Assembly: GCA_965219025.1 (NCBI GenBank)
Contig: OZ244716.1
Span: 1,351,812 to 1,415,811 of the forward strand
DNA length: 64,000 nt
From: Dehalococcoidia bacterium
GTDB taxonomy: Bacteria > Chloroflexota > Dehalococcoidia > Lucifugimonadales > UBA2985
Direction: 5' to 3'
Positions 19,739 through 36,111 of this stretch are shown in pieces. Positions within the stretch are counted from its first letter, which is position 1, and each line of letters starts with the position of its first letter. The notes beneath the pieces are model-generated. The model had not been told where the DNA came from and searched no databases. It saw nothing but the letters and a program-made list of their open reading frames with translations. The position numbers were made by a program, and so were the translations under genes.

Positions 19739-19775
19739 CCGGGCGTCAGCGCGACGAGCAAAGATTAGGAGTACT

Positions 19776-20000
19776 ATGGTGAAGGTCAACAAATATTGGC
19801 CCAATGCAATCTATCTGTTTGGAGTGGGCACTTTCCTCCTGATCTGGGGGGGCGTCCTTGCCAGGAGTGAGAACCCTCCTCCTATGGAGTTCCTGGTAAT
19901 CCTCCTCGTCATGGGCGTAGGGAGTCTCTTTACGGGCTACCTCGCGATTCCCACGTCGCCAAAGCGCCGCCGCAGGCGGCGGCGCAGGCACGTTATGTAG
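19776..20000 (+). CDS. small two-TM membrane protein with poly-Arg tail
   Basis: 74 aa, RBS AGGAG, two hydrophobic stretches, C-terminal SPKRRRRRRRRHVM. Confidence 0.55.
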   Translation: MVKVNKYWPNAIYLFGVGTFLLIWGGVLARSENPPPMEFLVILLVMGVGSLFTGYLAIPTSPKRRRRRRRRHVM

Positions 20001-20015
20001 AAGGCTTCTCAAGGA

Positions 20016-21488
20016 ATGATCCAAGTGGCCGAGCTCAACTTCCAGAACCGCACACTCTTTCACGGGGATAATCTCGACTTCCTGCGTGGAATGAATAGCG
20101 GTACCGTGAACCTCATTGCCACGGACCCGCCGTTCAAGAAGGGTCGGGACTTTCACGCAACGCCGAACTCGCTTGCTGCGGGAGCGAGCTTTCAAGACCG
20201 GTGGAGATGGCGAGACGATGTGCATGATGACTGGCTTGAAGCGCTCCAGCGAGACGAGCCAGAGGTTTGGCAGGTCATATCGACCGCAAAGACCGTTCAC
20301 GGAGAGTCGATGGGAGCTTTCCTGTGTTGGCTGGGAGTACGGCTGCTGGAGATGCACCGTGTCCTTGCTGACGACGGTAGCCTGTACTTGCACATTGACC
20401 ACACGGCTCATGCGTGGGTGAAGTGCTTGCTTGACGCCATCTTTGGACGCGAGAACTTCAGGAATGAACTTGTATGGCATTACGATGGCCCTCAACGTCC
20501 GAGCGTTCGGGATTTCGGAACAAAGCACGATACGATTCTTCGCTATTCCAAGTCGGATTCTTACACGGCGAACATGCGAGTCCCCGTCGTCCTCACCGAG
20601 GAAGAAGCGAAACAGCAATACAAGCAGACCGAGGATGGACGCTACTACTATGACCTGCCAAGAGGTGACTATACTGATGCCTCTATCGCTAGACTGGAAC
20701 AGGAGGGACGCATACGGTACACCCGGAACGGTACAGTCCGTGTGATGTATTTCCTAGACACGGACAGCGCGGGAAACGTGGTGCGCCAAAAGCAATTGCA
20801 CGATGTGTGGGAAGACATCCCAAGTCTTGGGATGGCGGCACAGTCGAAGGAGAACACAAAGTATCCCACGCAGAAGCCTCTAGCCCTCTATGAACGCATC
20901 ATCAAGGCTAGCAGCAAACCTGGTGATGTAGTGCTCGATCCCCACTGCGGCTGCGCAACGACCTGTGTCGCTGCAGAGAGGCTTGGAAGGCAGTGGGTCG
21001 GAATCGACATATGGGACGGCGCTGTGGATGTTGTGCGGAGGCGCATGGAGAGAGAACTTGGTCTGTTCAGTCTCGGGATTGCCTACCGTGACGACGTGCC
21101 AGTTAGGACGGATGCCGGAGAAACGGCGGCGCAGGCGTTTCGGACCCCTCTGGGTCGCACCCGGGAGCGCTATCCCGCACCGCGCACTCAGCACGGGAAG
21201 CTGGTGGGTGACATAGGCCCGTTGTGCCAGGGCTGTGGCGCGGACTACACTTTTGACCCGCGTGTGTTGGAGGTAGACCACATTCGTCCACGATCCGACG
21301 GCGGAAGCAATGCCTACGACAACCTCACCTTGCTTTGTCCGCCGTGCAACAAAGAGAAGCGAGACTACTACACCTTGTCAGCGCTCCAGGATCGGAACCG
21401 GACTAACGGCTACATGAAGCACGAAGGCAACCTACGAATGGGGCGCGCTGCTCGCGCTCCGGCTCGCAGGGGCAGGCGGCGCCGTTAG
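20016..21488 (+). CDS. N4/N6 DNA methyltransferase (beta class) fused to a C-terminal HNH endonuclease
   Basis: Motif IV DPPF precedes motif I DPHCGCATT; YPTQKPLAL; C-terminal CQGCG...VDHIRPRSDGGSNAYDNLTLLCPPCNKEK. Confidence 0.85.
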   Translation: MIQVAELNFQNRTLFHGDNLDFLRGMNSGTVNLIATDPPFKKGRDFHATPNSLAAGASFQDRWRWRDDVHDDWLEALQRDEPEVWQVISTAKTVHGESMGAFLCWLGVRLLEMHRVLADDGSLYLHIDHTAHAWVKCLLDAIFGRENFRNELVWHYDGPQRPSVRDFGTKHDTILRYSKSDSYTANMRVPVVLTEEEAKQQYKQTEDGRYYYDLPRGDYTDASIARLEQEGRIRYTRNGTVRVMYFLDTDSAGNVVRQKQLHDVWEDIPSLGMAAQSKENTKYPTQKPLALYERIIKASSKPGDVVLDPHCGCATTCVAAERLGRQWVGIDIWDGAVDVVRRRMERELGLFSLGIAYRDDVPVRTDAGETAAQAFRTPLGRTRERYPAPRTQHGKLVGDIGPLCQGCGADYTFDPRVLEVDHIRPRSDGGSNAYDNLTLLCPPCNKEKRDYYTLSALQDRNRTNGYMKHEGNLRMGRAARAPARRGRRRR

Positions 21489-21755
21489 GATAGTGCATAG
21501 AGGAGGAGTGCTGGCGGAATTCAACGTGAAAGGGCCCCCACCCTTTGGTAGATATCCTTCGCGCCAGACTTGTCCTCTTCATTTTACACCCTGGTCATCG
21601 GAACTCGAAAGGGCACCTGCCTTTCGGCGGATGCCCCTCTTGCGCCACGCTGCCACCTAATTCAACACTGGCTCGAGACCTTCTAAGCGTCAAGGCCAAG
21701 GGCAGCTTACTTGCTTGGGAAAATGCCGAGTAGGTCCCAACGCAGGACGGACCCC

Positions 21756-21989
21756 TCACGCCACGTGCAGCTGCCTGACCACTCCGTCCACCACCGTCCC
21801 AACCACGTGCCCGCCCACAGCTCCGCGGAGTCGCTCGTCGTCCCAGTCGTCGCCCAGGTCATAGGTGTAGCTCTTGTAGTCCGACGCCGGTTCAGCCTCG
21901 AACGCGAATACCTGTACCTCCAGGGTCAGCTCCCTCCTGGCAGTGTCTACGCTCAGCAGCGTTCCGGAGATTCCGTCCCTGCTCGCCAT
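21756..21989 (-). CDS. small hypothetical protein
   Basis: MASRDGISG..., 77 aa, RBS AGGAGG upstream of ATG 21989. Confidence 0.55.
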   Translation of the reverse strand: MASRDGISGTLLSVDTARRELTLEVQVFAFEAEPASDYKSYTYDLGDDWDDERLRGAVGGHVVGTVVDGVVRQLHVA

Positions 21990-22082
21990 CCGGTCCCCCT
22001 CCTGTGATTGTCCTTCAACCGAGGATAACACCGCGGCGCCCATCCGGGCAATCCATGCGGCGGCGCGGAGGGCGCCAGCCCG

Positions 22083-22457
22083 TCATCCGAACCAGATGGC
22101 GAGGTACTTCGTGAACCAGAACAGGCCGGCGTACGTGGCAACGGCCGATGCCGCCAAGACGATCAGCATGCGGCGGTACCGGTACGCGCCGCGTACGTTG
22201 CAGACGCCGCGGCCGCGCAGGAACAGGACGACGGCCAGCGTCGCCACTGCCAGGCCCGCCGCCCGGAAGTACCAGCCGTAGTCGTAGTAGAGGGTGTCGC
22301 CGAGCGTCACCGCCTCGGCTGCGGTTGCGATGCCCAGCAATGCCAATACCACCGGCGATACGCAGCAGGTGATGGCGACCAGGCCCGAGCCCACGCCCAT
22401 GAGGACCCCACGCTTCAGGGACCTGTTGGCTGCCTCGGGCGCCGTGCGTTCAGACAT
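22083..22457 (-). CDS. MerT/MerF-like small metal transport membrane protein
   Basis: ITCCVSPVVLALLG vicinal Cys pair in TM1, three hydrophobic segments, further Cys in GVCNV. Confidence 0.65.
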   Translation of the reverse strand: MSERTAPEAANRSLKRGVLMGVGSGLVAITCCVSPVVLALLGIATAAEAVTLGDTLYYDYGWYFRAAGLAVATLAVVLFLRGRGVCNVRGAYRYRRMLIVLAASAVATYAGLFWFTKYLAIWFG

Positions 22458-22603
22458 CGTAGATTCTCTCGTTCGGAGGGCCACCTATGGGGCTTGCCCG
22501 GTTCAACAGGCTAGCCTCTTGCGGTGACACTCGTCAACAGGGGTTCGATGCCGTGAGGAGTCAGGACGGTCCGCCTTCACGCGCGCGTGTCGTCACACTC
22601 CCG

Positions 22604-22632
22604 TTGACCAAAGAGAACAGGCGTGCTATTCT
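22604..22632 (+). promoter_or_regulatory. sigma70 promoter overlapped by a LexA-like box
   Basis: TTGACC-N17-TATTCT; AGAAC-AGGC-GTGCT at 22614-22627 differs at one position from AGAAC-N4-GTTCT. Confidence 0.55.
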
Positions 22633-22658
22633 CCTCCCTGCACGTCTCCAAATCAGGG

Positions 22659-22979
22659 ATGACGGCGCAGGAGGAAGCCTTGCCGGACTCTCTGCAGATT
22701 CTGATACTCGCTCAGGGGTCGCTTACCGCCCTGTCCGGCGGGTTCAACGCCGTCTACTTCGCCCGCTACTCCGCGTCCGACCGTAGCAGGCGCATTGCCT
22801 CGCGAGTGCTTGCGCTGGTCAACGTGAGCTTCCTTCTGCAGGGCCTGTACTGGGCCGCGGACGCGGCCGGCGATCAGGGAGATGGCCCGCCGCCGTGGCC
22901 GGGACTCGTAACGCTGCTGGCGTCGCTGGCCATAACCGCCATGGTGCTCCGTCGAAGGTCCGGCGGCCGCCGCCGCTAG
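22659..22979 (+). CDS. small membrane protein, first gene of the packaging-like operon
   Basis: 106 aa with about 3 hydrophobic segments and an Arg-rich C-terminus. Confidence 0.6.
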   Translation: MTAQEEALPDSLQILILAQGSLTALSGGFNAVYFARYSASDRSRRIASRVLALVNVSFLLQGLYWAADAAGDQGDGPPPWPGLVTLLASLAITAMVLRRRSGGRRR

Positions 22980-23010
22980 CAGCATAGCATTCATGGAAGG
23001 GAGGGGGCCA

Positions 23011-23169
23011 GTGAGCGCCATGTCGAAGGCCATCGAGAAACGTGAGTGGGAGGTGGTGGCCGTGTGCCTGCTGAGGGGGCTTGTGCAGGCGGCCTCCGCG
23101 CTGCCTCCGGACGCCGTGCACCAGTTGGTGGAAGCGCTGGAAGGAGACGAGCGTGCCAAACCCCGCTAG
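23011..23169 (+). CDS. small hypothetical protein (52 aa), below the ORF-track cutoff
   Basis: Translated by hand: MSAMSKAIEKREWEVVAVCLLRGLVQAASALPPDAVHQLVEALEGDERAKPR; GGAGGG upstream; overlaps the next gene. Confidence 0.55.
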   Translation: MSAMSKAIEKREWEVVAVCLLRGLVQAASALPPDAVHQLVEALEGDERAKPR

Positions 23170-23485
23170 CGGAAGTTCGCCGGAGCCGGGCGCCTTCTAC
23201 GAGGATGCCATGTCCCGGGCGGAGCGCGTGCGCCTGTCGCGGGCGAGGCAGCTTCAGGGCCTGGACGAGGAGATCGCTCTGCTCAGGGTGCGCCTGGGCA
23301 GCCTTGCAGAGGAGCAGCCGGACAACGTGGAGCTTCTCATAAAGGGGATCGGGATGCTGGTCAGGGCGGTATCCGCCAAGTACCGGCTTTCGCCCAGGTC
23401 CGAGAAGGACCTGTACCAGAGCCTGCTAGGCGTGCTGGAAGGCGTGGGCAGCGTCCTTATGCCGGAGGCGTCGGATGGGCAGTGA
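23153..23485 (+). CDS. putative terminase small subunit-like helical protein
   Basis: GTG start after GGAG; GLDEEIALLRVRL helical motif; position upstream of the large terminase. Confidence 0.5.
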   Translation: MPNPASGSSPEPGAFYEDAMSRAERVRLSRARQLQGLDEEIALLRVRLGSLAEEQPDNVELLIKGIGMLVRAVSAKYRLSPRSEKDLYQSLLGVLEGVGSVLMPEASDGQ

Positions 23486-23690
23486 CGAGATGGAGAAGGC
23501 GCTGGGGAAGTTTCGCAAGCCGGGCGTGGACGTATCGCCGCTGTCGACGTTCGACGCGCTGCTGGACCAGCGAATGGGACACCTGGAGCGGAGCGTAGAG
23601 GAGCTGAAGACGCGAGTCAACGGCCTGGTGTTTCTCGTGGCGGGAGCGGTGATTGTGCAGGTGCTGCTGCGCCTGCTGGAGTGGAGCTGA
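23475..23690 (+). CDS. small coiled-coil protein with C-terminal TM (XhlA/holin-like architecture)
   Basis: LDQRMGHLERSVEELKTRVN heptads followed by GLVFLVAGAVIVQVLL. Confidence 0.55.
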   Translation: MGSDEMEKALGKFRKPGVDVSPLSTFDALLDQRMGHLERSVEELKTRVNGLVFLVAGAVIVQVLLRLLEWS

Positions 23691-23694
23691 GCGA

Positions 23695-25113
23695 ATGAGC
23701 GGGATGGTGAATCTGAGGCCGTACCAGGTGGAGATCGGCCGGGCCGTAATGGACAGCGTGCTCAACGAGCGCGGCTTGACGTTCACGGTGGAGATCGCGC
23801 GACAGGGAGGCAAGAACGAGCTGTCGGCGCAGATGGAGGTGCTCCTGCTGGCCATGTTCGCGGCGAAGGGCGGCAACCTGGTGAAGGCCGCACCCACGTT
23901 CGACCCGCAGGTCCGCATCAGCATGTCGCGGCTGAAGGAGCGGCTGGGTCAGGCCGGCCTGGGCGGCCTGTGGAGCGCGGAGGCGGGCGGCGCCGTCCGG
24001 CTCGGCAGGGTGAGGCAGCTGTTCCTGAGCGCCGAGCCGTCGAGCAACGTAGTCGGCGCCACGGCCCACGTTCTCATCGAGATGGACGAGGCGCAGGACG
24101 TGGAGAGGGACAAGTTCTACAAGGAGTTCCGGCCCATGGGCGCCTCCACCAACGTGACAACCGTCCTCTATGGCACGCCCTGGCGCGGCGACTCGCTGCT
24201 GGAGGAGGTGAAGCAGTCCAACCTGGAGCTGGAGCGGAGCGACGGGGTAAAGCGTCACTTCCGGCAGTCCTGGGAGGAGGTGGCCGCTCACAACCCGCTC
24301 TACCGCGATTACGTTGAGGGCGAGCGGCGGCGGCTGGGGGAGAGCCATCCCCTCTTCCGCACGCAGTACATGCTGGAGTCGCTGAGCGGCGGGGGAGGCT
24401 TATTCTCGGCGGAGCAGCTTGCGCAGATGGATGGCCGCCACGGCCGCCGCCGCTCGCCGGAGCCGGGGCGGGTCTACGTCGCCGGCGTGGACGTGGCCGG
24501 CGAGGCGCCCGATGGCGAGGGTGTGGATGAGGCGCTGCGCGCCGCACGGCCCACCCGCGACTCCACAGTGGTCACCATCGGCGAGCTGGACTTCAGCGGC
24601 TGCGACGAACTATCGCCGGACCCGGCCGTGCGCATCGTGGAGCACCACTGGTGGACGGGGCAGAGCCACGCGGATCTCTACCCCAGGCTCGTTGACGTGC
24701 TGCGCGAGGTGTGGCGCTGCAGGCGCGTGGTGATAGACGCCTCCGGACTGGGACAGGGCATTGCCAGCTTCCTGGAGCGAACGATGGGCAGGGGCGTGGC
24801 TGTGCCCTTCGTGTTCACGGCGCAGAGCAAGTCGCGGCTGGCGTTCGACCTGCTGGCCGCGGTGAGCTCGGGCCGGCTGAAGATGTACGCGGCGGACGGG
24901 TCGCCGGAGTACGCCGAGATGCGCGCCCAGACCGAGCGTGCCGTCGGTCGGGTGAGGCCAAACCGGACGATGAACTTCTACGTGGAGTCCCGCGAGGGGC
25001 ATGACGACTTCCTGATGAGCCTTGCGCTGCTGGTCGGCGCCGCCGAATACAGGCCGCGTCACGCTCGGGGAAGAGCAGCGGTGAGAGCGGGCGCCGTCCC
25101 GCCGAGGGGGTGA
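23695..25113 (+). CDS. phage terminase large subunit-like protein
   Basis: LRPYQ (Q motif), ARQGGKNE Walker A-like, IEMDEAQD Walker B, VAGVDVAG and HDDFLMSLAL RNase H-like nuclease acidic residues. Confidence 0.85.
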   Translation: MSGMVNLRPYQVEIGRAVMDSVLNERGLTFTVEIARQGGKNELSAQMEVLLLAMFAAKGGNLVKAAPTFDPQVRISMSRLKERLGQAGLGGLWSAEAGGAVRLGRVRQLFLSAEPSSNVVGATAHVLIEMDEAQDVERDKFYKEFRPMGASTNVTTVLYGTPWRGDSLLEEVKQSNLELERSDGVKRHFRQSWEEVAAHNPLYRDYVEGERRRLGESHPLFRTQYMLESLSGGGGLFSAEQLAQMDGRHGRRRSPEPGRVYVAGVDVAGEAPDGEGVDEALRAARPTRDSTVVTIGELDFSGCDELSPDPAVRIVEHHWWTGQSHADLYPRLVDVLREVWRCRRVVIDASGLGQGIASFLERTMGRGVAVPFVFTAQSKSRLAFDLLAAVSSGRLKMYAADGSPEYAEMRAQTERAVGRVRPNRTMNFYVESREGHDDFLMSLALLVGAAEYRPRHARGRAAVRAGAVPPRG

Positions 25114-25117
25114 GTGC

Positions 25118-25420
25118 GTGAGTCCAAGAAGGAACGAACCCGTCATTGACGTGCTGCCGGAGCAGCACCAGTACCGGGACGAAGGCTGCAGCGTGTCGCC
25201 GTCGTGCCTGCGCTGCCCGCTGCCGTGGTGCAAGTACGACGACCCGGCCGCCTACCACCGGGAGCTGCGGCTGAGTCGTGACCGCGAGGTGATGCAGGTG
25301 AAGCGCGATCAGGGCAAGACCGTACCGCAGCTGGCGCGCCACTTCGGCCTCAGCGAGCGGACGATACATCGGATCCTGGAGCGCGCCAGGGTCGTAACGC
25401 TCGAAGGCGATGGGCTGTGA
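25118..25420 (+). CDS. Cys4-motif / helix-turn-helix DNA-binding protein
   Basis: CSVSPSCLRCPLPWC, then KTVPQLARHFGLSERTIHRIL HTH. Confidence 0.7.
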   Translation: MSPRRNEPVIDVLPEQHQYRDEGCSVSPSCLRCPLPWCKYDDPAAYHRELRLSRDREVMQVKRDQGKTVPQLARHFGLSERTIHRILERARVVTLEGDGL

Positions 25421-25452
25421 GGTGGACGTCTTGAGCAGTTCAGGAGAACGAC

Positions 25453-26757
25453 ATGAGTAACCTTTCGCTTCCGCAGCAGCTGGCCCGGATGGACGGCGAT
25501 AGGCTGAGGGCCTACCGCGAGAATCTGGAGTTCTACGCAGGCGCGCAGTGGAAGGGTACGCCGCACCGGTGGGAGCGACGGCTCACCTTCAACTACGCTC
25601 GCACGTTCCTGGACAAGGTGACCTCCTACCTGATGACGGAAATGTCCTTCGTCATCGGCCCCACGGACTCGTCGGCGGAGGCGGTGGAGCGGGCGAGCCG
25701 CGCGGATGAGGCGCTGCGCGGCGTGTACGATGACAACCGGCTGGAGCAGCTCGACTTCGATACGGAGCTGGACACCGCCATTCTGGGCGACGGCTGCTAC
25801 AAGGTGACGTGGGACTCACAGGAGCGGCGAGTGAGGATCAGCGCGCCGGACGTGCAGGGCCTGTTCGCCTGGTGGGTCGCGGACGACGTGGGTCGCGTGT
25901 GGCAGGTCGCAAGCCGCTACCACCTGACGCCGGAGCAGGCGCAGACGCTCTACGGAGTGAAGCCTGCACAGATGAACCGCCGGGCCGGCCGAGCGACCGT
26001 GGTGGAGGCGTGGACCCCGCGTGAGCTCCGGCTGTGGGTGGACGATACGCTGGTGCAGGAGCGGGCCAATCCCTACGGATTCATACCGTTCGTCATATTC
26101 CCCAACCTGCGCGAGCCAAAGCGGTTCTGGGGCCAGTCGGACATCCCGCCAATCGTGGAGCCGTCACGGGAGCTGAACAGGGCCGTATCGCAGCTGTCGA
26201 TGATACTGGAGCTGTCGGGCAACCCCATCGCGGTTGTGGAGGGCGTGGAGCGTGCGGAGGACATCGCCGTACAGCCTGGCGCGGTGTGGGAGCTGCCGGA
26301 GCGCGCTCGTGCGTACCTGCTGGACCTGCTGCAGGGCGGGGGCGCCAAGCTCCACGTGGACTTCATCGACGTGATACACCGCGCGCTGCACGACCTGTCG
26401 GAGGCGCCTCGCATCAGCTTTGGCGACAACCCGCGGAACCTGTCCGGCGTGGCGCTGGAGATGGAGATGGGCCCGCTGCTCCAGCGCGTGCGGCGGAAGA
26501 GGCTCATCCGAGCGACGGCCTACCGGGAGCGGAACGAGATGGCGCTGCGGATACTGGAGAAGCGCACGGGCGTGAAGTACCTGCCGGTGAGGCAGCGAGT
26601 GGTGTGGGGCCCGCTGCTTCCGCAGGACCGGAGCCGGCTGGTGAGGGAGCAGCAGACGCTGGTGGAGGCTGGGATCCAGAGCAGGCGCCGCGCCATGGAG
26701 AACCTTGGCATCGATGACCCGGATGCGGAGCTGGAGCGTCTGAAGGCTGAGGGGTGA
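25453..26757 (+). CDS. phage portal protein (SPP1 Gp6-like)
   Basis: RLTFNYARTF, ILGDGCYKV, NPYGFIPFVIFPN, GQSDI...RELNRAVS, NLSGVALE; RBS AGGAG. Confidence 0.85.
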   Translation: MSNLSLPQQLARMDGDRLRAYRENLEFYAGAQWKGTPHRWERRLTFNYARTFLDKVTSYLMTEMSFVIGPTDSSAEAVERASRADEALRGVYDDNRLEQLDFDTELDTAILGDGCYKVTWDSQERRVRISAPDVQGLFAWWVADDVGRVWQVASRYHLTPEQAQTLYGVKPAQMNRRAGRATVVEAWTPRELRLWVDDTLVQERANPYGFIPFVIFPNLREPKRFWGQSDIPPIVEPSRELNRAVSQLSMILELSGNPIAVVEGVERAEDIAVQPGAVWELPERARAYLLDLLQGGGAKLHVDFIDVIHRALHDLSEAPRISFGDNPRNLSGVALEMEMGPLLQRVRRKRLIRATAYRERNEMALRILEKRTGVKYLPVRQRVVWGPLLPQDRSRLVREQQTLVEAGIQSRRRAMENLGIDDPDAELERLKAEG

Positions 26758-26810
26758 CGCCGGGTCGGGAGACAGATCGCGCCTCCCGACCAAGACCTTT
26801 GCGCCTTGCC

Positions 26811-28139
26811 CTAGTCCGGTGTGGCGCTCCAAACGACCGAGTAGCTGAAGTCCGGCATGAACGCGCCCGACACGCCTATCTCCGCCGGCTTGTGTATCTG
26901 CCGCGCGCCCGCCCTGCCCTGCAGCTGCTGCACGCTGTCGATGTGCAGCCAGAAGCGAGTGCGACCGGCCCCGGCGTTGCCGCCGCTGGGCGACGCGGGG
27001 TTGGGCCCCTCGATCGAGATGTCGGTCTGGTAGAAGTCCAGCGCCTCGCCGCGCTGAACCCCTGCGAACCGCAGCCCCTCCAGGTGAAACTGGTGGAACA
27101 GCGTGAAGCCGTCGTACATGTTCTCGAACGTCAGGTCGCTGGGGCCGATGCCGGCGCCCTCGTACAGCTTTCGGCCCGTGAAGTCGGCGGCGTCCTGCCA
27201 CTCCTCCAGCGTGGGCACCACGCTGCGAGACGCAGGCAGCGTTCGGTTGTGGTTCAGGATGTAGACCGGCTTCTGCTTCATGTCCTTGGCCCGCTCGGCC
27301 GTGGTGTATACGAAGGCCGCGGAGACGCAGATTGGCAGGTCGTTGTCGAAGAGGTTGGCGGGCTTGGCGATCCAGCGGGCCGCCAGGTAGTCCTCGACCG
27401 ACAGAGCCTCGGGTCTGTGCTGCGCCCAGAAGCCCTCGGGGAACAGCAGGCCATTGCGCTTCTCCTCGACCACGAACTGCGCCATCATGTCGTGGCTCTT
27501 GCCGTACTTGCGGCAGTAGGATTCGAAGATCATGGCGGTGGTGTAGCAGGCGACGGTGCCCCACAGGCCCTGCCACTTGCCGGGACCGGCGATGGTGTTG
27601 CCCGCGGCGTCACCCTGCCCCACGTAGTACCGCCCGCCGAAGTTGTGCCATCCGCGCACCACCAGGCAGGTGTTAGTCATGCCGTCCCCCACGGCCTGCG
27701 CCGCCACAACCAGGGCGTTGGACATGCAGATGGGCGCATACATGACGAACTTGACGTTGCTCAGTTCCGGCATATTCTTGAGGATCCAGTCCGAGCTGAG
27801 CTTGGCGATGCCGTCCATGGGGTCGTCGGTGGACTGGTACATATTGAGGAAGTCCTCAGGGATGGGCTTGTCGGACGGCCAGGGCGAGCCGGTGGAAGTC
27901 TCCGGTGTGAGCACCAGCCCGTCGACCTGGTCAGGCGTTACGCCCGCGTCCTCCATTGCCCTGCGGATGGCGAGTATGGTCCACGCGCCGACGCTGGTAT
28001 CGGCGGTCTCGTCCCAGCGCCGCGCGGTGGGCGACACTCCGACGCCAACGGCCGCCACCTTGCCTCGGTGCTCCCACACACCCAGTCCCTCGGTGCTTCT
28101 GTAGATCGAATCCGGGGCCATCTGTGCTTGCGTTACCAC
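26811..28139 (-). CDS. thiolase-superfamily protein (SCP-x/Ltp2-like)
   Basis: VAAVGVG, AMEDAGVTPDQVDG, DNDLPI, NMYDGFT, SGGNAG, QQLQG; RBS GAGGAGG. Confidence 0.85.
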   Translation of the reverse strand: MVTQAQMAPDSIYRSTEGLGVWEHRGKVAAVGVGVSPTARRWDETADTSVGAWTILAIRRAMEDAGVTPDQVDGLVLTPETSTGSPWPSDKPIPEDFLNMYQSTDDPMDGIAKLSSDWILKNMPELSNVKFVMYAPICMSNALVVAAQAVGDGMTNTCLVVRGWHNFGGRYYVGQGDAAGNTIAGPGKWQGLWGTVACYTTAMIFESYCRKYGKSHDMMAQFVVEEKRNGLLFPEGFWAQHRPEALSVEDYLAARWIAKPANLFDNDLPICVSAAFVYTTAERAKDMKQKPVYILNHNRTLPASRSVVPTLEEWQDAADFTGRKLYEGAGIGPSDLTFENMYDGFTLFHQFHLEGLRFAGVQRGEALDFYQTDISIEGPNPASPSGGNAGAGRTRFWLHIDSVQQLQGRAGARQIHKPAEIGVSGAFMPDFSYSVVWSATPD

Positions 28140-28262
28140 TTCTCACCTCCTCGAAAGTCTCTCTGCCGCATCCGCAGCGCAATTCGACTGGCGCACCGCC
28201 GCGCCCTGTGTTCCGGGCACCTGGATTGTAACTCAGGGGGCCTCCCAAGTCGAGCCGCCGCG

Positions 28263-30695
28263 CTAGCGCAGCCTGAACAGGGCCGCCCACTTGATGCGGC
28301 TCCACGCATTCGCCAGCCCGGGCGCCTCGGCGGCATCGGGCCGCACGCCGCCGTACCTGTGGCGCACGTAGGCACGCGTCACAAGCTCCACCTCCGACCG
28401 CGCCTCAGGTAGCAGGCTCGAGAGGCTGTGCGAGTACTCTAGGGCGGTCTGCGAGGACGGCGCGCGGAATCCGAGTAACGTCGCCAGGCGTTGCATCCTG
28501 CGGTAGGCGGCCTGCGCGGACCAGGGCGCGCCGTACTGCGCGACCCACAGAATGCGCATCACCGACGCTCCGGCCAGCATGAAGCCGGCAAACATGAGGC
28601 CGCCCGCGCCCAGCGGCGTCCCGACCCTCACGCCGGGATCCCGCGAAGCCTCCTCGTCCGCGGCCGGGGCATCGGCTTCCACCGCCATCGATAGGTTCCG
28701 CGGCGACAGCTGGTCCGGACCGCGGGGGCGCACGGGGTAGATGGGCGACGGTTCGAACGGCGCCCAGCCCAGGCCGGGGAAGTAGACCTCCGGCCACGAG
28801 TGGTTGTGGCTGTCGCGCACCAGGTACCCCTCCGGGTCGACCTCGCCGGGCGCGAATCCGAGTACCAGCCGCGCGGGTACTCCCTGCGTCCTCAGCATCA
28901 TCGCCATCGCAGAGGCGAAGTAGTCGCTGTAGCTCTCCCTGGACTCGAACAGGAAGTAGTCAACCGCGTCGGCCTCGTTGGGCAGGAAGATTGGGACACT
29001 ACTGTACTCCAGAGTTCGAAGGTAGGACTCCACGGCAAAGGCCATGTCGTACGGGTTGGCCGCGCCGTCGACCAGCTCGTCGGCAAGAGAAGAGACCCTC
29101 TCGGGCAGAGACGGCGGTATCTGTAGGTATCGCTCGACTATGCGTGGAGGGTAGTCCCGCGGGGCGGCGCGCAGTAACGCCTCGTCCGCGATCAGGATGT
29201 CGGAATCGACGGCGTAGCTGTTGCCAAGCCCGAGCTGGCCCTGCGTGGTGAAGAGTACAGGGGAGTCTTCCAGCGGTGCGCGGACAACCTCCAGCGCGAG
29301 GGTCTGGCCGGGGCCGTCCAGGGCGCTCCGCAGGTCCTCCGTGTACGCGGGCGAGCCTGGGTCAACGACTACGACCGACTCCTCGCCGGCAGGTCCGGCC
29401 GACTTGACGACGGCGGAAACGCGCAGGTGGGCGGGCAGCCGCGATACGTCCGGCGACCCCGCCGTGGAAGCCAGCTCCGACTCCAGGGCGCGCAGGTCGC
29501 CGGACAGATCGTCGCTGCGGCCGGGGTCGGCCAGGTCCAGCCGGTGTGCCGACGATGAGGGCGCCTGCAGCTGCGCGTCGGGGTCGACGTCCGCAGGGTT
29601 TCCGGCGATGAACAGGTAAGGCGTCTCCACGTACAGGTATATGGTGTAGGTGGTCGGCCGCGTGATGGGAGGCCCGTCGCTTTCCCCGGAGGCAGGCACT
29701 TCCGGCGGGGGTATCACGTCCAGCGTGGCCGTGTCCTGCACCTTCCAGACCTTGGACGTGTAGTGATCGTATGCCACCGCCGACCAGTAGTACGGATAGT
29801 CGGCCTCCGCAAAGAGGATCGGTTCGGTGCTGTTGGACACCGGCCTCACGAGTGACAGCACGGAGCCCAGGAACCGGACGGAGAGTATCTCACGGTCGCT
29901 TGTGCCGCCAAAGACGCGGCTCACCTCGTCGCGGATCTCGCCTCTGGCGGTCCCGTTAACGGGGTTGTAGAACCAGTCCAGCGGCGAAGATGGCGATTCG
30001 CCGAGGGGTAGCACCGCTGCCAGCACCACCAGGGCAGCGCTGATCCACAGGCCGTGCACCAGCGACCTCCGGTGAAGCGATGCGGGATGCGCCGCGCCCT
30101 GTGCCAGCAGCGCCTCGATCCGTACCCGGCTGGCGGCGTGCGCGATCATGAGCAGGCACAGCAGGAGGAACGTCCACAGGTAGGGAGAGGTGCTTCCGGG
30201 CTGGTAGGTGACGTTGATGATCGTGACGGCGCCCACCGGCAGGAGGGTCATCCACACACTGCGATAGCGCAGAAACGTCAGCGTGGTCAGGTAGGACATG
30301 GCCCACGTGAGGGCCGTTATGGTGACGGACAGAGGCAGCTGGTCCGAGACCCTCTCGCCGCTGCGCAGGGCTGAGATCCAGCCGGAGAGGCCCGAGAGCA
30401 GCGCGTCGAGCTTGTCGAATGGCCCATCGCCTTCGGCGACGAGCGTGCCGCAGGCGCAGGCCACGATAGCGCCGGCGGCCAGGGCCCGAAGGTGCAGGTA
30501 AGCGCGACGTTCACTGGATGCGAAGGCGTGAGCGGCGAGGATGGCGGCCAGGAATGCCGCCGGCGCCAGAAGCGGCGCTTTCACCCAACCTGCGAACTGC
30601 AGCGACGAGGCCGCCGTTACCAGCAGGGCCGCCTGAAGCCAGAAGGCCGCGCCGGTCCTCTGCAGGAAGCGCGGAATGTAGGCTGTTGGTGGCAA
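28263..30695 (-). CDS. transglutaminase-like membrane protein (TgpA/DUF3488-DUF4129 architecture)
   Basis: N-terminal multi-TM region; YFASAMAMMLRTQGVPARLVLGF and HSWPEVYFPGLGWAPFEPSP; the usual catalytic Cys (GYC) appears as SYS. Confidence 0.8.
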   Translation of the reverse strand: MPPTAYIPRFLQRTGAAFWLQAALLVTAASSLQFAGWVKAPLLAPAAFLAAILAAHAFASSERRAYLHLRALAAGAIVACACGTLVAEGDGPFDKLDALLSGLSGWISALRSGERVSDQLPLSVTITALTWAMSYLTTLTFLRYRSVWMTLLPVGAVTIINVTYQPGSTSPYLWTFLLLCLLMIAHAASRVRIEALLAQGAAHPASLHRRSLVHGLWISAALVVLAAVLPLGESPSSPLDWFYNPVNGTARGEIRDEVSRVFGGTSDREILSVRFLGSVLSLVRPVSNSTEPILFAEADYPYYWSAVAYDHYTSKVWKVQDTATLDVIPPPEVPASGESDGPPITRPTTYTIYLYVETPYLFIAGNPADVDPDAQLQAPSSSAHRLDLADPGRSDDLSGDLRALESELASTAGSPDVSRLPAHLRVSAVVKSAGPAGEESVVVVDPGSPAYTEDLRSALDGPGQTLALEVVRAPLEDSPVLFTTQGQLGLGNSYAVDSDILIADEALLRAAPRDYPPRIVERYLQIPPSLPERVSSLADELVDGAANPYDMAFAVESYLRTLEYSSVPIFLPNEADAVDYFLFESRESYSDYFASAMAMMLRTQGVPARLVLGFAPGEVDPEGYLVRDSHNHSWPEVYFPGLGWAPFEPSPIYPVRPRGPDQLSPRNLSMAVEADAPAADEEASRDPGVRVGTPLGAGGLMFAGFMLAGASVMRILWVAQYGAPWSAQAAYRRMQRLATLLGFRAPSSQTALEYSHSLSSLLPEARSEVELVTRAYVRHRYGGVRPDAAEAPGLANAWSRIKWAALFRLR

Positions 30696-30841
30696 GCTAG
30701 GCCTCCGGGCCCGACTCTACCGGGCTGCCGGCCTGCGCGCCGAGGAAGCCTCGCGGCCGCCGGCCGCCGCGGGAGCGGCGCCGGCTACCCTGATCGCTGG
30801 GCGGCCGGCCTCGCTCCCTGCGTGCTCGAGCATGCTCTAGG

Positions 30842-32179
30842 CTACGACGGGACGTTGGAAAGGCAGAGGTAGGCGGAGCTGGTGAAGGGAGCGAAGGCGC
30901 AGATGGCCGTCTCCGCCTTCACGCTGACCTGACGACTGCCGGCGGTCCCTCGGAGCTGCTGGATGCTGTCGATGTACATGGACGTGCGGGTGCGCCCGTT
31001 GCCCAGGTTGCCGCCGCCGGAGCAGAATGGGTGAGGCCCTTCAACGCTGATGTCGCCGTTGAAGAAGTCCCTTGCCTCGCCATAACCCACGTCGTGCCAG
31101 CCGAAGGCCTCCAGGAAGAACGGGAGGAACCAGGAGTAGCCGTCGTACGGGTTGAAGATGTCCACGTCCCTGGGCGTCCAGCCTGAGCCTTCGTAGGCCA
31201 TCTGGGCGGCCATGGCGTTTGCCACCTCCTGCTCGTCGCAGGTGATCTGGCTGCTGCGGGGTCTGCCCGTGTTGCCCTGGTTGTGGTTCATCACGTAGAC
31301 CGGCTTCTGCTTCATGTCCTTCGCGCGCTCCGCAGTGGCGAAGACAAAGGCGCCAACGGCGTTGATCGGCCTGTCGCAGTCCCAGATCTTGATTGGCCAG
31401 AAGGTGGGTCGGGAGTTGAGGTAGTCCTCATGGGTGAGGCCGGAGGCCCCGTTCTGGTAGTAGAAGCTCCAGCCCTCCATGTCGGAATCCTGCTTCATGA
31501 GGCCGTTCCGGTGCTCGTTGATGATGACGGGGGCCATCATGTCGTCCCATTCCACGCCGTACTTGTGGCAGTAGCCCTGTAGCGGCAGCGCGTCCTGCCC
31601 CCCGGCTGCGCCCCACGGCGTGTTCCACTGGCGAGCGCCCCTGGAGTGGTCCTCGGCGTTGTCGCCGCCGCGGCGGTAGCGGCCTTCCAGGTTGTTGGCG
31701 GTGTAGACGTACACCCCGACCTGGTACTTGCCCTCGGCGCAGGCCTGGGCTGCGTAGCCCATCCCCTCACCGATTGCGGGTATGTCGTCCGCCGTGTACG
31801 TCACGTTGGACAGCTCCGGCATCTGGCTCAGGAGCCAGCGGTTGGTGACGATGCTGATGCCCTCCTCGGAGTCGTAGGGCGGCGCGAGGTATGGGCGATA
31901 GGGCCCCCACTGGCCGGCGGGTCCGGCCACGTTGAAGCCGGCCATGTTGTCCGGGCAGCAGAGCAGGCCGTCGACCTCCTCCGGCTTCACGCCCGCGTCG
32001 TCCAGGGCTCGTCGGACTGCCTGTATGGCGTAGGCGCCCAAGATAGTGTCCATGGTGACGCCGTCCCATCGCCGGTCCACCGGCGAGTGGCCCCATCCTG
32101 TGATCGCCACCTTGCCCTGGTGCGGCCAGACGCCCAGGCCGGTCGTGTCCCTTCTCCAGCTAGTTTCCTGTGTGGTCAC
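30842..32179 (-). CDS. thiolase-superfamily protein (SCP-x/Ltp2-like), paralog of 26811-28139
   Basis: VAITGWG, ALDDAGVKPEEVDG, WDCDRPI, NPYDGYS, GGGNLG, QQLRG. Confidence 0.85.
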   Translation of the reverse strand: MTTQETSWRRDTTGLGVWPHQGKVAITGWGHSPVDRRWDGVTMDTILGAYAIQAVRRALDDAGVKPEEVDGLLCCPDNMAGFNVAGPAGQWGPYRPYLAPPYDSEEGISIVTNRWLLSQMPELSNVTYTADDIPAIGEGMGYAAQACAEGKYQVGVYVYTANNLEGRYRRGGDNAEDHSRGARQWNTPWGAAGGQDALPLQGYCHKYGVEWDDMMAPVIINEHRNGLMKQDSDMEGWSFYYQNGASGLTHEDYLNSRPTFWPIKIWDCDRPINAVGAFVFATAERAKDMKQKPVYVMNHNQGNTGRPRSSQITCDEQEVANAMAAQMAYEGSGWTPRDVDIFNPYDGYSWFLPFFLEAFGWHDVGYGEARDFFNGDISVEGPHPFCSGGGNLGNGRTRTSMYIDSIQQLRGTAGSRQVSVKAETAICAFAPFTSSAYLCLSNVPS

Positions 32180-32888: not shown

Positions 32889-32965
32889 GGGCGGTTAGCT
32901 CAGCTGGTTAGAGCGCTTGCTTCACACGCAAGAGGTCAGTGGTTCAAGTCCACTACCGCCCACCA
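32889..32965 (+). tRNA. trnV: tRNA-Val (anticodon CAC)
   Basis: GGGCGGT/ACCGCCC acceptor stem, CTTGC-TTCACAC-GCAAG anticodon arm, TTCAAGT T-loop, encoded CCA; 77 nt. Confidence 0.96.
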
Positions 32966-33051
32966 CGACTTGGTAAAAGAAGGCCCTTCACCTTGAGGTT
33001 CAGCCCAAGAGTGTAGACCACAGGGCTAGACTTGCAGCGTCCACCTTCATC

Positions 33052-35013
33052 TTGGAGCTCCAATTGCGAAAGGACATCGGTGGAGTCGGGGGAATCGTGT
33101 CGTTATGCTTAGTGGGTGCCGCTATGCTGTTGGCATGCGACGACGGCCTGCAGATCTCGTCTACTCCCAGCGCTACTTCGATGCCCGTGCCAACACTCGC
33201 TCTGGTTGTCACTTCTACGTCCACACCGGAGCCTTCTCAAACTGAGCCAAGGCCTGTCTACACGCCGACGACTAGTCCGAATTCCACAGCCACGCTTGAG
33301 CCTCGTTTCACGCCTATCAGCAGTGGCCATCTGCACACCTGTGCACTCACTCAGAGTGGAGCCGCCATTTGTTGGGGGAACGATGAGTATGGCCAGTCAT
33401 CACCACCGGATGGCGAGCAGTTCATCTCCATAAGCAGCGGCAGCCGACACACTTGCGCCCTTACTAAAGACAAGACCGCTCTTTGTTGGGGCGACAATGA
33501 ATACGGTCAGTCATCACCGCCAGAGGGCGAGCAGTTCATCTCCATAAGCAGCGGTGGTGATCTGTTCGGCTATTCATTGTTCGACGGACACACCTGTGCG
33601 CTCCGCCGCGACGGCTCCGCCGTTTGCTGGGGAGACAACAGCTCGGGGCAGTCATCGCCACCGGAAGGCGAGCGCTTCACGTCCATCAGCACCGGAGAAG
33701 GGCACACCTGCGCCCTCCGGGAAGATGGGACAGCCGTATGTTGGGGTCATTCAACGGAACCGCCGAAGGAAGAGCAGTTCACCACTATAAGCGCTGGCGA
33801 GGAATACACGTGTGCTCTGCGCGGCGACGGTTCTCCAGTCTGCTGGGGATATGGTCATCATGGGGCGGCAAATCCGCCACAAGAGGAGCGCTTTACTGCT
33901 CTCAGCAGCAGTGAAGGATACGCTTGCGGTTTGAGAAGTGACGGCTCGGTTGCCTGCTGGGGGCTGGTCCCTCCTATAGATGCCTCTCCTCTATGGAATG
34001 ATTTCGGTCAGGCTGCACCGCCGGAGAGTGAACGCTTCACGGCCATTAGCAGCGGGCCGCTCCATACCTGTGCACTTCGAGAGGACGGTACGCCCTTCTG
34101 CTGGGGTGTGGATACGATACCAAAGGGTGGCGAGCGCTTCATACCAGTTGCCGGGCATTGGACATCGGCTGAGATGGATGGAATGCCGGTGGGGAATGAG
34201 CGCTTCACTACAATCAGCAGTGGCAGCCGCCAGACCTGCGCGCTCCGAGAGGATGGCTCCGATCGCTGCTGGGGACCATGGGGCGTGTCCAGCAGATTCC
34301 GGCTCTTGGATGAAAACAGGGACTTCCTGGAGGACGCACGGTTTGCCGCCATCAGCTCTGGGAAGTACTTCGCCTGCGGGCTTCGCGAGAACGGCTCAAT
34401 AGCCTGCTGGAATTCAGGTTTCTGGCAACCCTTCTCACCCCCGGAGGACCACCGCTTTGAAGCGGTCGGTGTTGGGGGTGACACCTGCGCCATTAGGGAT
34501 GACGGCGCTCTCATCTGCTGGGGTTGGTCTTTTGACGATGCAGTTGTGCTGGACGGTGGCCCCATCATCGCGATAAGCCCGGGCTACGACCATGTCTGCG
34601 GGCTACGTGAAGACGGCTCTCCTCATTGCTGGAACTACGTCGAATTCACCCAAGTGTCTGTCCCGGATGGAGAACAATTCACCGCAGTTAGCAGCGGTCG
34701 GGGGTTCGCCTGCGGACTGCGCCAAGATGGGACTCCCGTTTGCTGGGGCCGGGCCACCGACAGTTGGCTATCGCCACCGGAGGGTGAACGTTTCATTGCT
34801 ATAAGTAGTGGTCGTAGTCATAGCTGCGCACTCCGACAGGATGGCTCTCCTGCTTGCTGGGGCGAGAATGGCGCAAACCAGTCATCGCCACCGGAGGGTG
34901 AACGTTTCATCGCCATTAGTAGTGGTGATGACCATAGCTGCGCCCTCCGAGAGGATGGCTCTCCCGTCTGCTGGGGTTGGAGTGACTTCGGCCAAGCCTC
35001 ACCTCCGCGATAA
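33052..35013 (+). CDS. RCC1/BLIP-II repeat beta-propeller lipoprotein
   Basis: Lipobox MLLAC, Pro/Thr linker, about 14 repeats of the type FxxISSGxxHTCALxxDGxxxCWG (about 39 aa); true start may be downstream (33064 or 33097). Confidence 0.85.
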   Translation: MELQLRKDIGGVGGIVSLCLVGAAMLLACDDGLQISSTPSATSMPVPTLALVVTSTSTPEPSQTEPRPVYTPTTSPNSTATLEPRFTPISSGHLHTCALTQSGAAICWGNDEYGQSSPPDGEQFISISSGSRHTCALTKDKTALCWGDNEYGQSSPPEGEQFISISSGGDLFGYSLFDGHTCALRRDGSAVCWGDNSSGQSSPPEGERFTSISTGEGHTCALREDGTAVCWGHSTEPPKEEQFTTISAGEEYTCALRGDGSPVCWGYGHHGAANPPQEERFTALSSSEGYACGLRSDGSVACWGLVPPIDASPLWNDFGQAAPPESERFTAISSGPLHTCALREDGTPFCWGVDTIPKGGERFIPVAGHWTSAEMDGMPVGNERFTTISSGSRQTCALREDGSDRCWGPWGVSSRFRLLDENRDFLEDARFAAISSGKYFACGLRENGSIACWNSGFWQPFSPPEDHRFEAVGVGGDTCAIRDDGALICWGWSFDDAVVLDGGPIIAISPGYDHVCGLREDGSPHCWNYVEFTQVSVPDGEQFTAVSSGRGFACGLRQDGTPVCWGRATDSWLSPPEGERFIAISSGRSHSCALRQDGSPACWGENGANQSSPPEGERFIAISSGDDHSCALREDGSPVCWGWSDFGQASPPR

Positions 35014-35088
35014 GGCGCTTCTACTGAGCCATGAGTGCCTTCTATCGTTACAGCATTGCCAGCTACCGAATTATTCGCAGTTCAGTGC

Positions 35089-35219
35089 GCCTTGACCCAC
35101 CATGCGCTAAACTTGTCCGAGCCAGCGAAGAGTCCTTCGAAGTTTTCGCATCGCAAACACCGTTAACTCTTCTCCGACGGTTCGTCGCAGGGCTTGTCAA
35201 GTTAGCTTAATCGTTAAGC
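35089..35219 (+). other. degenerate integron attC site
   Basis: 3' end GTTAGCTTAATC-GTTAAGC (core GTTRRRY at 35213-35219); imperfect arms GCTAAACTTG/CAAGTTAGC, AGCC/GGCT, GAAGAGT/ACTCTTC; 5' inverse core eroded (GCCTTGAC). Confidence 0.55.
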
Positions 35220-35922: not shown

Positions 35923-35928
35923 TTAGGT
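35873..35928 (+). other. integron attC site (56 bp)
   Basis: R'' GCTTAAC ... R' GTTAGGT; arms TTTAGCCAGGCG-A-CGC / GCG-CGCCTGCCAAA with unpaired C and A as in canonical attC. Confidence 0.78.
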
Positions 35929-36111
35929 GTTAGGAGACGATAGTCATAGAATGGTTGAGCCTCCAACCCTGGCGGATCGGAAGCTCGTGAGGCGCCTTCC
36001 GGAGTCGCTTGACCGCCTCCTCAGATACGAACCTCCCACCGAATAGCTCGCAAATCAGTACGCCTTTTAGCTCCACCACCTTCAGCTGGACTAGTTCAGA
36101 GATTGCTCGAT

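Follow-up and report, generated by a model that had tools for sequence, protein, structure and literature searches.

A phage-derived DNA-packaging operon fixed in Dehalococcoidia chromosomes, probably one unit of a dispersed gene transfer agent-like system

The present analysis concerns a 64,000-nucleotide stretch of the genome of a Dehalococcoidia bacterium (assembly GCA_965219025.1, contig OZ244716.1, positions 1,351,812 to 1,415,811; hereafter, the window), in which positions 22589-26757 form a single transcription unit; of a gene set derived from a phage, it encodes the half that packages DNA. The unit is located between rpsT and a thiolase gene, with relA also in the flank, and its seven genes (g1 to g7, Table 1) include those for a small-terminase homologue (TerS, g3), a large terminase (TerL, g5) and a portal protein (g7). 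Within the class Dehalococcoidia the gene set is passed on vertically as a stable feature of the chromosome, and the operon in the window is probably the packaging unit of a multi-locus, gene transfer agent (GTA)-like system that is likely to be under SOS control. As read from its genes, this system appears to be independently domesticated, short-tailed and controlled through a LexA-type box.

The packaging proteins and their promoter

The original prediction, made from the letters of the window, had proposed seven co-oriented and closely packed genes behind a single sigma70 promoter. All seven open reading frames (ORFs) exist, on the + strand between 22.6 and 26.8 kb and with gaps or overlaps of 4-32 nt between neighbours, their starts having been refined by comparison with relatives, and alignments over dozens of species reveal family-specific invariant residues that are present in each of the seven proteins. 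By its motif set, g5 is an intact large terminase of the tailed-phage type. It carries a Walker A motif (ARQGGKNE, 23797-23820), a Walker B motif (VLIEMDEAQ, about 24067-24096), a YGT coupling motif (24169-24177) and the nuclease acidic residues D266 (24490-24492), D348 (24736-24738) and D437/D438 (25003-25008), and the ATPase and nuclease motifs are invariant in 26 species. Searches with tblastn against annotated phage terminases matched those of Bacillus phage vB_BboS-125 (E 1e-47) and BCD7 (E 6e-31). Pairwise alignment with the vB_BboS-125 terminase (30% identity, E 5e-57) places all ATPase and nuclease motifs in common, namely a variant Walker A, (A/T)RQxGKNE, a Walker B of the form (D/E)EAQD, the coupling motif YGTPW/YGVAW and nuclease acidic positions within VDVAGE, (I/V)DA(S/T)G and HDD. 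The intact Walker A/B and nuclease residues that had been claimed for this protein are thus borne out both across species and against the TerL of an infectious phage. The window TerL has no Pfam or NCBIfam match, its PHROG matches are weak and no PDB sequence was matched even with the family profile; likewise, searches of all PDB sequences with family-profile hidden Markov models of TerL, g3 and g6 returned nothing significant.

The portal protein is matched by PF05133 (E 1e-19, 71.3 bits vs a gathering cut-off of 25.5) and by phrog_64 (E 1.7e-28), and the top Foldseek matches of its AlphaFold model (mean pLDDT 60) are all phage portals, the best being that of 80alpha (E 1.6e-11). The SU10_portal family is reached by the window protein at E 0.081 and is a precomputed Pfam match in some of its homologues. 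More than 4000 homologues were found, the top 120 of which are all at least 65% identical; many of the top homologues are on multi-megabase contigs, and those that are named are labelled Dehalococcoidia or Chloroflexota.

For g3, the family profile aligns by hhalign with the TerS of a phage-like relative (L164) as a full-length homologue (99.7% probability, E 2e-26), and the L164 protein in turn matches phrog_1889, phrog_509 and phrog_370, all of which are annotated 'terminase small subunit'. The coiled coil of g4 is followed by one strongly hydrophobic helix, and 8 of 26 members of the g4 family match NCBIfam NF048001, the head-formation protein rcc01685 of the Rhodobacter capsulatus GTA (RcGTA), with a best E of 2.7e-4, below the curated cut-off. 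Three hydrophobic segments, only one of which passes a strict hydropathy cut-off, a +6 C-terminal tail (RRRSGGRRR) and the conserved motif GFNA.YF..Y....RR characterize g1, which may be described as holin-like by topology alone. The earlier proposal of a membrane-associated DNA translocase working without a capsid gained no positive support, g4 being more like a head-formation protein than a dedicated membrane component. No match to g1, g2 or the window's own g3 was obtained in Pfam, PHROG, NCBIfam or PADLOC scans. Finally, g6 has four invariant cysteines (C24, C30, C33 and C38) followed by a helix-turn-helix (HTH) that gives matches to the HTH_23, sigma70 region 4 and Mor families; a single-sequence AlphaFold model (pLDDT 60) predicts only the C-terminal three-helix HTH. 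It is a candidate module-specific regulator.

The promoter, TTGACC-17-TATTCT with a TG extension, is the only sigma70-like match in 21400-27200, an interval in which 0.5 would be expected, and is not significant alone. It is regarded as real because it is phylogenetically footprinted: many species have it at the identical place ahead of the module's first gene, it is conserved in an alignment with two clades of relatives and its surroundings are not, and nucleotide homology with the relatives L008 and L009 restarts at about 22580-22590, just upstream of the -35. The single promoter of the original prediction thus stands. About 8-10 nt upstream of the -35 lies an element with the family consensus GACA(A)/GCCAC, which is a possible activator site.

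Overlapping this promoter is AGAACAGGCGTGCT, where the 64 kb has its sole match to AGAACNNNNGTKCT; it differs by one mismatch from GAAC-N4-GTTC, the LexA box of Gram-positive bacteria and of Dehalococcoides. A composite promoter-operator motif, TTGnn-N5-8-RGAAC-N4-NTNCT, was scanned for in about 2 Mb of related loci and in the window; 106 of its 113 matches are directly upstream of a module unit, whether the packaging unit (with g1, g2 or g3 first), a g6-portal unit or a scaffold-capsid unit, and the window itself contains exactly one. The logo from 105 distinct sites reads T-AGAAC-ATAT-GT(G/T)CT-A-nT-nT, after a -35 of TTGAC and the GACA(A)/GCCAC element. The operator, AGAAC-N4-GT(G/T)CT, is palindromic, with a perfect box at many of the sites; the G that is common in its right half supplies the TG of an extended -10. 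In many lineages g6 has its own copy of the promoter-operator. A perfect box, AGAACATTAGTTCA, is also present between the promoter and the start codon of the lexA gene of one relative (L011, 12655-13272). GAACN4GTTC is the LexA box of B. subtilis (PMC4234289). From these sequences we infer that the operator is a repressor site, with LexA as the most likely repressor, since the site matches the Gram-positive GAAC-N4-GTTC box, and with g6 as the alternative. In L011 (12612-13272), lexA directly follows the scaffold gene belonging to the phage-derived set.

Distribution, descent and dispersal of the gene set

When one genome per species was scanned, a portal relative was found in at least 571 species-representative genomes. 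Every one of the 80 best carries a Chloroflexota label, in most cases that of Dehalococcoidia, and complete chromosomes are numerous among them. Of 70 loci that reach far enough upstream, 51 keep the order g3-TerL-g6-portal, and g1, g2 and g4 are detectable in 31-47 of the same 70 (g2 in 41). The window is collinear with two close relatives (L001 and L007) at 95-98% nucleotide identity, except for a 2-kb islet upstream of the module, and synteny extends to at least six genomes of its clade, six of which have the full set of seven intact genes. L168, a more distant relative with a portal 86% identical, retains the same context of ABC transporter, relA, rpsT, module and thiolase. The context is not an assembly artefact, because it recurs in complete long-read chromosomes.

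The rate of divergence of the module is that of the chromosome around it. Against L008 and L009, dS is 0.18-0.40 for the module and 0.23-0.35 for relA and thiolase; against L168, dS is 0.65-1.3 and omega about 0.1, alike for module and host genes, such that the dS of the module equals that of flanking relA, rpsT and thiolase in all three comparisons. In the comparisons with L008 and L009, omega is 0.06-0.08 for the portal (up to 0.10 when L168 is included), 0.12-0.13 for TerL (up to 0.135 with L168), 0.08-0.12 for g6 and 0.17-0.5 for the small genes g1-g4; the corresponding values for host genes are 0.09 for relA (0.09-0.12 including L168) and 0.05 for thiolase. In 19 species with HIT and HD genes approximately 5 kb upstream, portal identities between pairs of species rise and fall with those of HD and HIT (Pearson 0.97 and 0.93, respectively; Mantel p about 5e-4), and the mean identity of the portal, 68%, is above that of those host proteins (46% and 54%). 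A domesticated and vertically inherited module had been proposed at the outset, with synteny, presence across genomes and dN/dS as the checks; a gene set that is class-wide, syntenic with host genes in a fixed context, co-diverging with them and under purifying selection (omega 0.06-0.135 for portal, TerL and g6) agrees with that proposal. Some lineages (L005, 9302-9421; L035, 9825-9962; L044, 9146-9652; and L056) have an intact portal, and usually g6, beside a TerL fragment or no TerL at all; judging from these loci, TerL is apparently either lost or relocated there.

The remaining particle genes were found in relatives by clustering all ORFs of long loci. Downstream of the portal, relatives encode a coiled-coil, scaffold-like protein of ~150 aa, and further genes specify an HK97-type major capsid protein (MCP) of 296 aa (phrog_212, E 2.5e-72; PF05065, SU10_MCP), an SU10-type head-tail adaptor of 211 aa (PF24175), a tail protein of ~660 aa (phrog_1887) and a protein of ~70 aa, a set that by its gene content specifies a short-tailed head. 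The units adjoin one another in some lineages; in others, intervening host genes have pulled them progressively apart, at the extreme into wholly separate loci. In short IMG/VR fragments the capsid-side genes are contiguous with the portal. In chromosomes they are apart from the portal and from each other, with 0.1 to >10 kb of host genes between; host genes also interrupt the TerL-g6 or the g6-portal pair in some genomes, and throughout the clade to which the window belongs no capsid gene lies within 10 kb of the portal. The 71.6-kb contig ERZ4756918 NODE_942 illustrates this layout. It carries g6-portal-scaffold at about 58-65 kb, with TerL not beside g6, and, at 41.4-47.3 kb, the capsid, four small genes, the adaptor, a 649-aa tail protein and the 70-aa protein; the two loci are ~18 kb apart in opposite orientation with metabolic genes between them, and both units have the promoter-operator, the capsid's own promoter containing a perfect AGAACACCTGTTCT. 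The space between capsid and adaptor holds variable, structural-looking extra genes in L096 (5157-6587 and 7371-7706), L140 (7897-10046) and L169 (11095-13059), including a LamG-like 225-aa protein that matches a virion structural PHROG, a 574-aa protein and small ORFs, which may be lineage-specific decoration or fibre proteins.

For the window, tblastn with the family's own proteins detected no scaffold, capsid, adaptor or tail gene in the 64 kb, nor were any of these present in the 10-kb flanks of four close relatives. No integrase was present in ~15 kb downstream of the module or in the upstream flank, and no att site or replication gene was seen at the locus, the flanks of which are housekeeping genes syntenic across species. 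The absence of capsid, tail and integrase genes, as originally predicted, therefore holds as a statement about the window rather than the genome. Of the split, GTA-like system that had been envisaged, with the class Dehalococcoidia correctly named, one part is upheld, in that sister lineages do carry capsid, adaptor and tail genes at other loci under the same promoter-operator, but non-exhaustive scaffold and capsid searches did not detect the capsid half in the window's own lineage.

Phage-like members of the same family provide a comparison for the domesticated set. A basal IMG/VR group comprises compact TerS-TerL-portal-scaffold-capsid-adaptor elements in the same gene order, with TerL and portal proteins 54-58% identical to those of the window; unlike the chromosomal sets, two of them (L164 and L159) have a tyrosine integrase directly upstream and a third (L101) has an Xre-like HTH gene and RepO. 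These phage-like relatives lack g1, g2 and g6, and the operator copy is found nowhere in them, g6 being confined to chromosomal, operator-bearing members. Their TerS begins with GAPxGNQNARKHGFYS, whereas the N-terminal GAPxGNQNARKHG motif is absent in 59 of 61 chromosomal TerS copies, window g3 included. We infer that the lost motif was a DNA-recognition element; the lack of a TerS DNA-binding domain has been reported for all known GTAs (PMC11841831; PMC6854486). In another relative (L066), a promoter-operator at 5141 (-) drives an isolated 81-aa ORF with an N-terminal GAPxGNxNAxKxG (motif at 5037), a motif otherwise confined to the start of the phage-type TerS; this ORF may be a split-off remnant of the N-terminal domain of a phage-type TerS. 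The nearest deposited phages are distant (TerL at most 30%, portal at most 25% and capsid at most 42% identical). The TerL of vB_BboS-125, BCD7 and Streptomyces phage BRock is alike over >90% of its length at 25-30% identity, sharing the Walker A RQxGKNE and the nuclease motifs, and their portals are about 25% identical; however, these are infectious phages with complete genomes, and the identities are far below the 55-99% among Dehalococcoidia chromosomal copies. At least 338 IMG/VR 'viral contigs' contain the portal family, and those inspected (L087-L166) are 5-27 kb fragments, many with g6 and the operator; many of these contigs are probably pieces of Dehalococcoidia chromosome and not phage genomes.

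Proposed mechanism and competing readings

Taken as a GTA-like system, the gene set would operate as follows. A repressor, for which LexA is the best candidate, would occupy the operator, and DNA damage would de-repress all units together; g6 may act as a co-regulator within the regulon, possibly at the upstream GACA element, or alternatively may itself be the operator-binding protein. Portal, scaffold and capsid would build procapsids, which TerS and TerL would fill by headful packaging. Host DNA could be packaged non-specifically, as in GTAs, because the TerS motif is lost and the set is without replication, excision and integration genes. Release of particles may be helped by the holin-type g1. 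The capsid half of the window's lineage would reside elsewhere in the 2.0-2.4 Mb chromosome; such a second locus is the economical expectation, since strong purifying selection implies that the packaging genes still function.

Several genomic features by which GTAs are recognized are found here, namely the absence of mobility genes, vertical descent, purifying selection, a truncated TerS, host-type regulation and, in the family, a multi-locus layout. As in RcGTA-type systems (Rhodobacter capsulatus, Caulobacter), phage-derived head and packaging genes are fixed in the chromosome, inherited vertically and evolve slowly under purifying selection; RcGTA has likewise been described as a multi-locus 'genome' (PMC5026251), a trait seen here in the family, and has a TerS without the phage-type DNA-recognition part (PMC6854486; PMC11841831). 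Both have host-level regulation and a dedicated HTH or sigma-like activator (GafA in RcGTA), for which g6 may be the counterpart, and the small, ~70-aa head-formation protein rcc01685 of RcGTA is weakly resembled by g4. However, the Dehalococcoidia set appears to be of independent origin, in a chloroflexotal host, and is known here from genes alone; the family has a short-tailed SU10-like adaptor and tail where RcGTA has a siphovirus-like tail, no prohead protease was seen in the set, and an HTH gene is placed between TerL and portal. Further, every Dehalococcoidia unit has a LexA-box-like operator, whereas RcGTA is controlled via CtrA, GafA and quorum sensing. Membership of the RcGTA family itself was considered and rejected, as the g4 match to NF048001 is weak and sub-cut-off and TerL and portal have no NCBIfam match. 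The likeness to phage SU10 (Kuravirus), whose SU10_adaptor and SU10_MCP families match the relatives' adaptor and capsid, is remote and at the level of families, and no SU10-type nozzle, fibre or prolate-head genes were identified.

Several observations weigh against a GTA-like system. The whole case is known from the genes of uncultured metagenome-assembled genomes alone. The regulatory argument has weak points, in that the window operator is mismatched in its right half-site (GTGC), the positive control for the box is one lexA promoter (that of L011), a recA promoter checked as a second SOS control (in L034) has no box, and the operator co-occurs strictly with g6, such that g6 and not LexA may be the binder. 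The system is not universally intact, TerL being truncated in the four lineages named above, and no endolysin or obvious receptor-binding fibre was identified. When the closest available scaffold (L010, portal 82% identical) was used as query, 93 matches were obtained, none of them on the complete 2,420,026-bp or 1,977,289-bp contigs of the window's closest relatives, and sister-clade scaffolds were recovered at 45-88% identity; a search with the capsid gave, among the best 120 of 5626 matches, no contig of the window's lineage. These scaffold and capsid searches were non-exhaustive, either listing the best 120 matches or depending on shared 5-mers.

It must also be considered what kind of particle would be made, as an SOS-induced particle could be a PBSX-like killer and not a gene-transfer agent. 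In this scenario, to which we would assign a modest chance, a defective-phage particle is SOS-induced, packages host DNA and kills in the manner of a bacteriocin, or lyses the cell, with no gene delivery. Damage induction, as in PBSX, is implied by the LexA-box-like operator that all units share; the set is chromosomally fixed, has no integrase or replication genes and encodes a head with a short tail; and the loss of the TerS motif and the class-wide conservation would fit either a GTA or a PBSX-like particle. The resemblance to PBSX of Bacillus indeed includes chromosomal fixation, SOS inducibility and non-specific packaging of host DNA (for Dehalococcoidia, as deduced from genes) and an operator of the Gram-positive GAAC-N4-GTTC class. 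However, the tail is minimal, consisting of the adaptor and one 660-aa protein; it lacks a contractile sheath or tube and does not readily suggest a device for killing. The genes of PBSX, moreover, form one unbroken, myovirus-like cluster that includes a contractile tail and the lysis cassette xhlA-xhlB-xlyA and is restricted to a narrow host group, whereas the Dehalococcoidia set is dispersed, short-tailed and class-wide. An alternate scenario, with a small chance of being correct, is that the window's clade lost scaffold and capsid and that the motor was co-opted as a capsid-independent or helper-dependent packaging module, for example for the capture or sabotage of the procapsids of infecting relatives, for damage-induced DNA processing or for membrane DNA export. 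The absence of scaffold and capsid from the window and within 10 kb in L001, L007 and L168 is consistent with this, as are the recovery, in the non-exhaustive scaffold search, of sister-clade proteins and of none from this clade's complete contigs, strong purifying selection across dS of about 0.3-1, the existence of related integrase-bearing phages that could serve as helpers, and the presence of two small hydrophobic proteins in the operon. However, sister lineages with no capsid near the portal carry one elsewhere, the searches had the reach described above, no PADLOC matches or mobility gene (as a satellite would need) were found, and g4 resembles a head-formation protein. A phage satellite of the PICI type was rejected as an identity, as there is no integrase, no replication or primase module and no helper-responsive repressor, and the position is fixed and descent vertical; a known defence system was likewise rejected, there being no PADLOC match.

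The two remaining explanations fare worse. That the operon is a decaying prophage remnant, left by a deletion or created by an assembly break beside the thiolase gene, is very improbable: the structural module does end abruptly after the portal, indel hot spots flank it, with the methylase-HNH islet before it and a variable spacer after it, and a few relatives have a truncated TerL, but all seven genes are intact in six clade genomes, the large genes have omega values of 0.06-0.13, the promoter-operator is conserved, dS equals that of the host neighbours, and the position is identical in a relative with 86% portal identity and the context in complete long-read chromosomes. Together, dS, omega, synteny and the correlation of portal with host identities rule out both a prophage in decay and one acquired recently. 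An active temperate phage or mobile element with its remaining genes beyond the window is scarcely credible, even though the same gene family includes elements with integrase, Xre-like repressor and RepO, as the flanks are syntenic housekeeping genes, no integrase, att site or replication gene is present, divergence matches that of the host, and relatives have host genes interspersed between the units.

If the GTA-like system is real, an entire bacterial class would possess an independently domesticated, short-tailed particle system that is spread over several loci and whose regulatory code is simple and readable, and a candidate route of horizontal gene transfer would exist in organisms that have no known one; DNA damage is then predicted to switch on the gene set. 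The Dehalococcoidia, almost entirely uncultured, abound in communities of the subsurface, soil, groundwater and deep ocean; one capsid homologue is labelled SAR202. The family would further offer a model of phage domestication, since phage-like and domesticated relatives coexist in it and differ by discrete steps, the HTH gene and operator having been gained, the TerS motif and integrase lost and the units dispersed. If the capsid has truly been lost in the window's lineage, the motor would have a role beyond that of one locus of a GTA-like set. For annotation, the IMG/VR viral contigs of the portal family should be read as partly probable host chromosome. Experimentally known GTAs are those of a handful of lineages, namely Alphaproteobacteria, Bartonella, Brachyspira, Desulfovibrio and Methanococcus (PMC11841831). 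Literature searches covering Dehalococcoidia, Chloroflexota and SAR202 turned up no account of a GTA or of a domesticated phage module, and public annotations of the family read only 'phage portal protein' or 'phage major capsid protein'.

Feature positions and neighbouring genes

Table 1. Positions in the window of the promoter elements and genes of the packaging unit
Feature	Position	Strand	Remarks
Conserved upstream promoter element GTCGTCACACTCCCG	22589..22603	+	conserved across clades, neighbouring sequence not
sigma70-type promoter	22604..22632	+	-35 TTGACC at 22604-22609, 17-nt spacer, extended -10 TGcTATTCT
-10 hexamer TATTCT	22627-22632	+	
Operator AGAACAGGCGTGCT	22614..22627	+	in spacer and -10; LexA (Cheo) box-like
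g1	22659..22979	+	106 aa, membrane protein
g2	23011..23169	+	52 aa, conserved, no assigned role
g3	23153..23485	+	110 aa, small-terminase (TerS) homologue
g4	23475..23690	+	71 aa, coiled coil and C-terminal hydrophobic helix
g5 (TerL)	23695..25113	+	472 aa, large terminase
g6	25118..25420	+	100 aa, Cys4 zinc-ribbon-like segment and C-terminal HTH
g7 (portal)	25453..26757	+	434 aa, SPP1 gp6-like family

The abrupt end against a convergent thiolase-like gene that was first described is accurate, the two stop codons being 53 nt apart. The host-like composition claimed at the same time applies to the module, with a GC content of 0.66-0.69, but not to its immediate surroundings, as a low-GC (0.55) islet of ~2 kb (19750-21750) lies just upstream, between rpsT and the module. 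This islet contains a fused N6/N4 DNA methyltransferase-HNH endonuclease of 490 aa (20016-21488). At the same spot, a toxin-antitoxin-like PIN/DUF7662 pair is present in the close relative L001 and nothing in L168, and the gap between rpsT and module is taken to be an insertion hot spot because its contents differ among the three. Two small, divergent ORFs on the - strand are located just upstream of the module promoter (22083-22484 and 21756-22043). One encodes 133 aa with three hydrophobic segments and a faint MerT/DsbD-like match and is missing in L008, and L009 has a 1.6-kb insertion after it; the other encodes 95 aa without matches.

On the far side of the module, synteny with L001 and L007 stops at a tRNA-Val gene (32889-32965), after which L001 has a large serine recombinase island and the window (33000-36000) encodes an RCC1-repeat protein of 653 aa and a HAD hydrolase and includes a stretch with a GC content of 0.51; the region past the tRNA is probably an unrelated, tRNA-linked variable island. 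Between the module and this boundary, at 26811-32179 on the - strand, two paralogous Thiolase_C_1 genes, 42% identical, are found on both sides of a gene for an 810-aa TgpA-like transglutaminase, and in L001 a ChsH2-type OB/zinc-ribbon gene is next to the thiolase region, an arrangement that looks like a cluster of the steroid or side-chain thiolase type.

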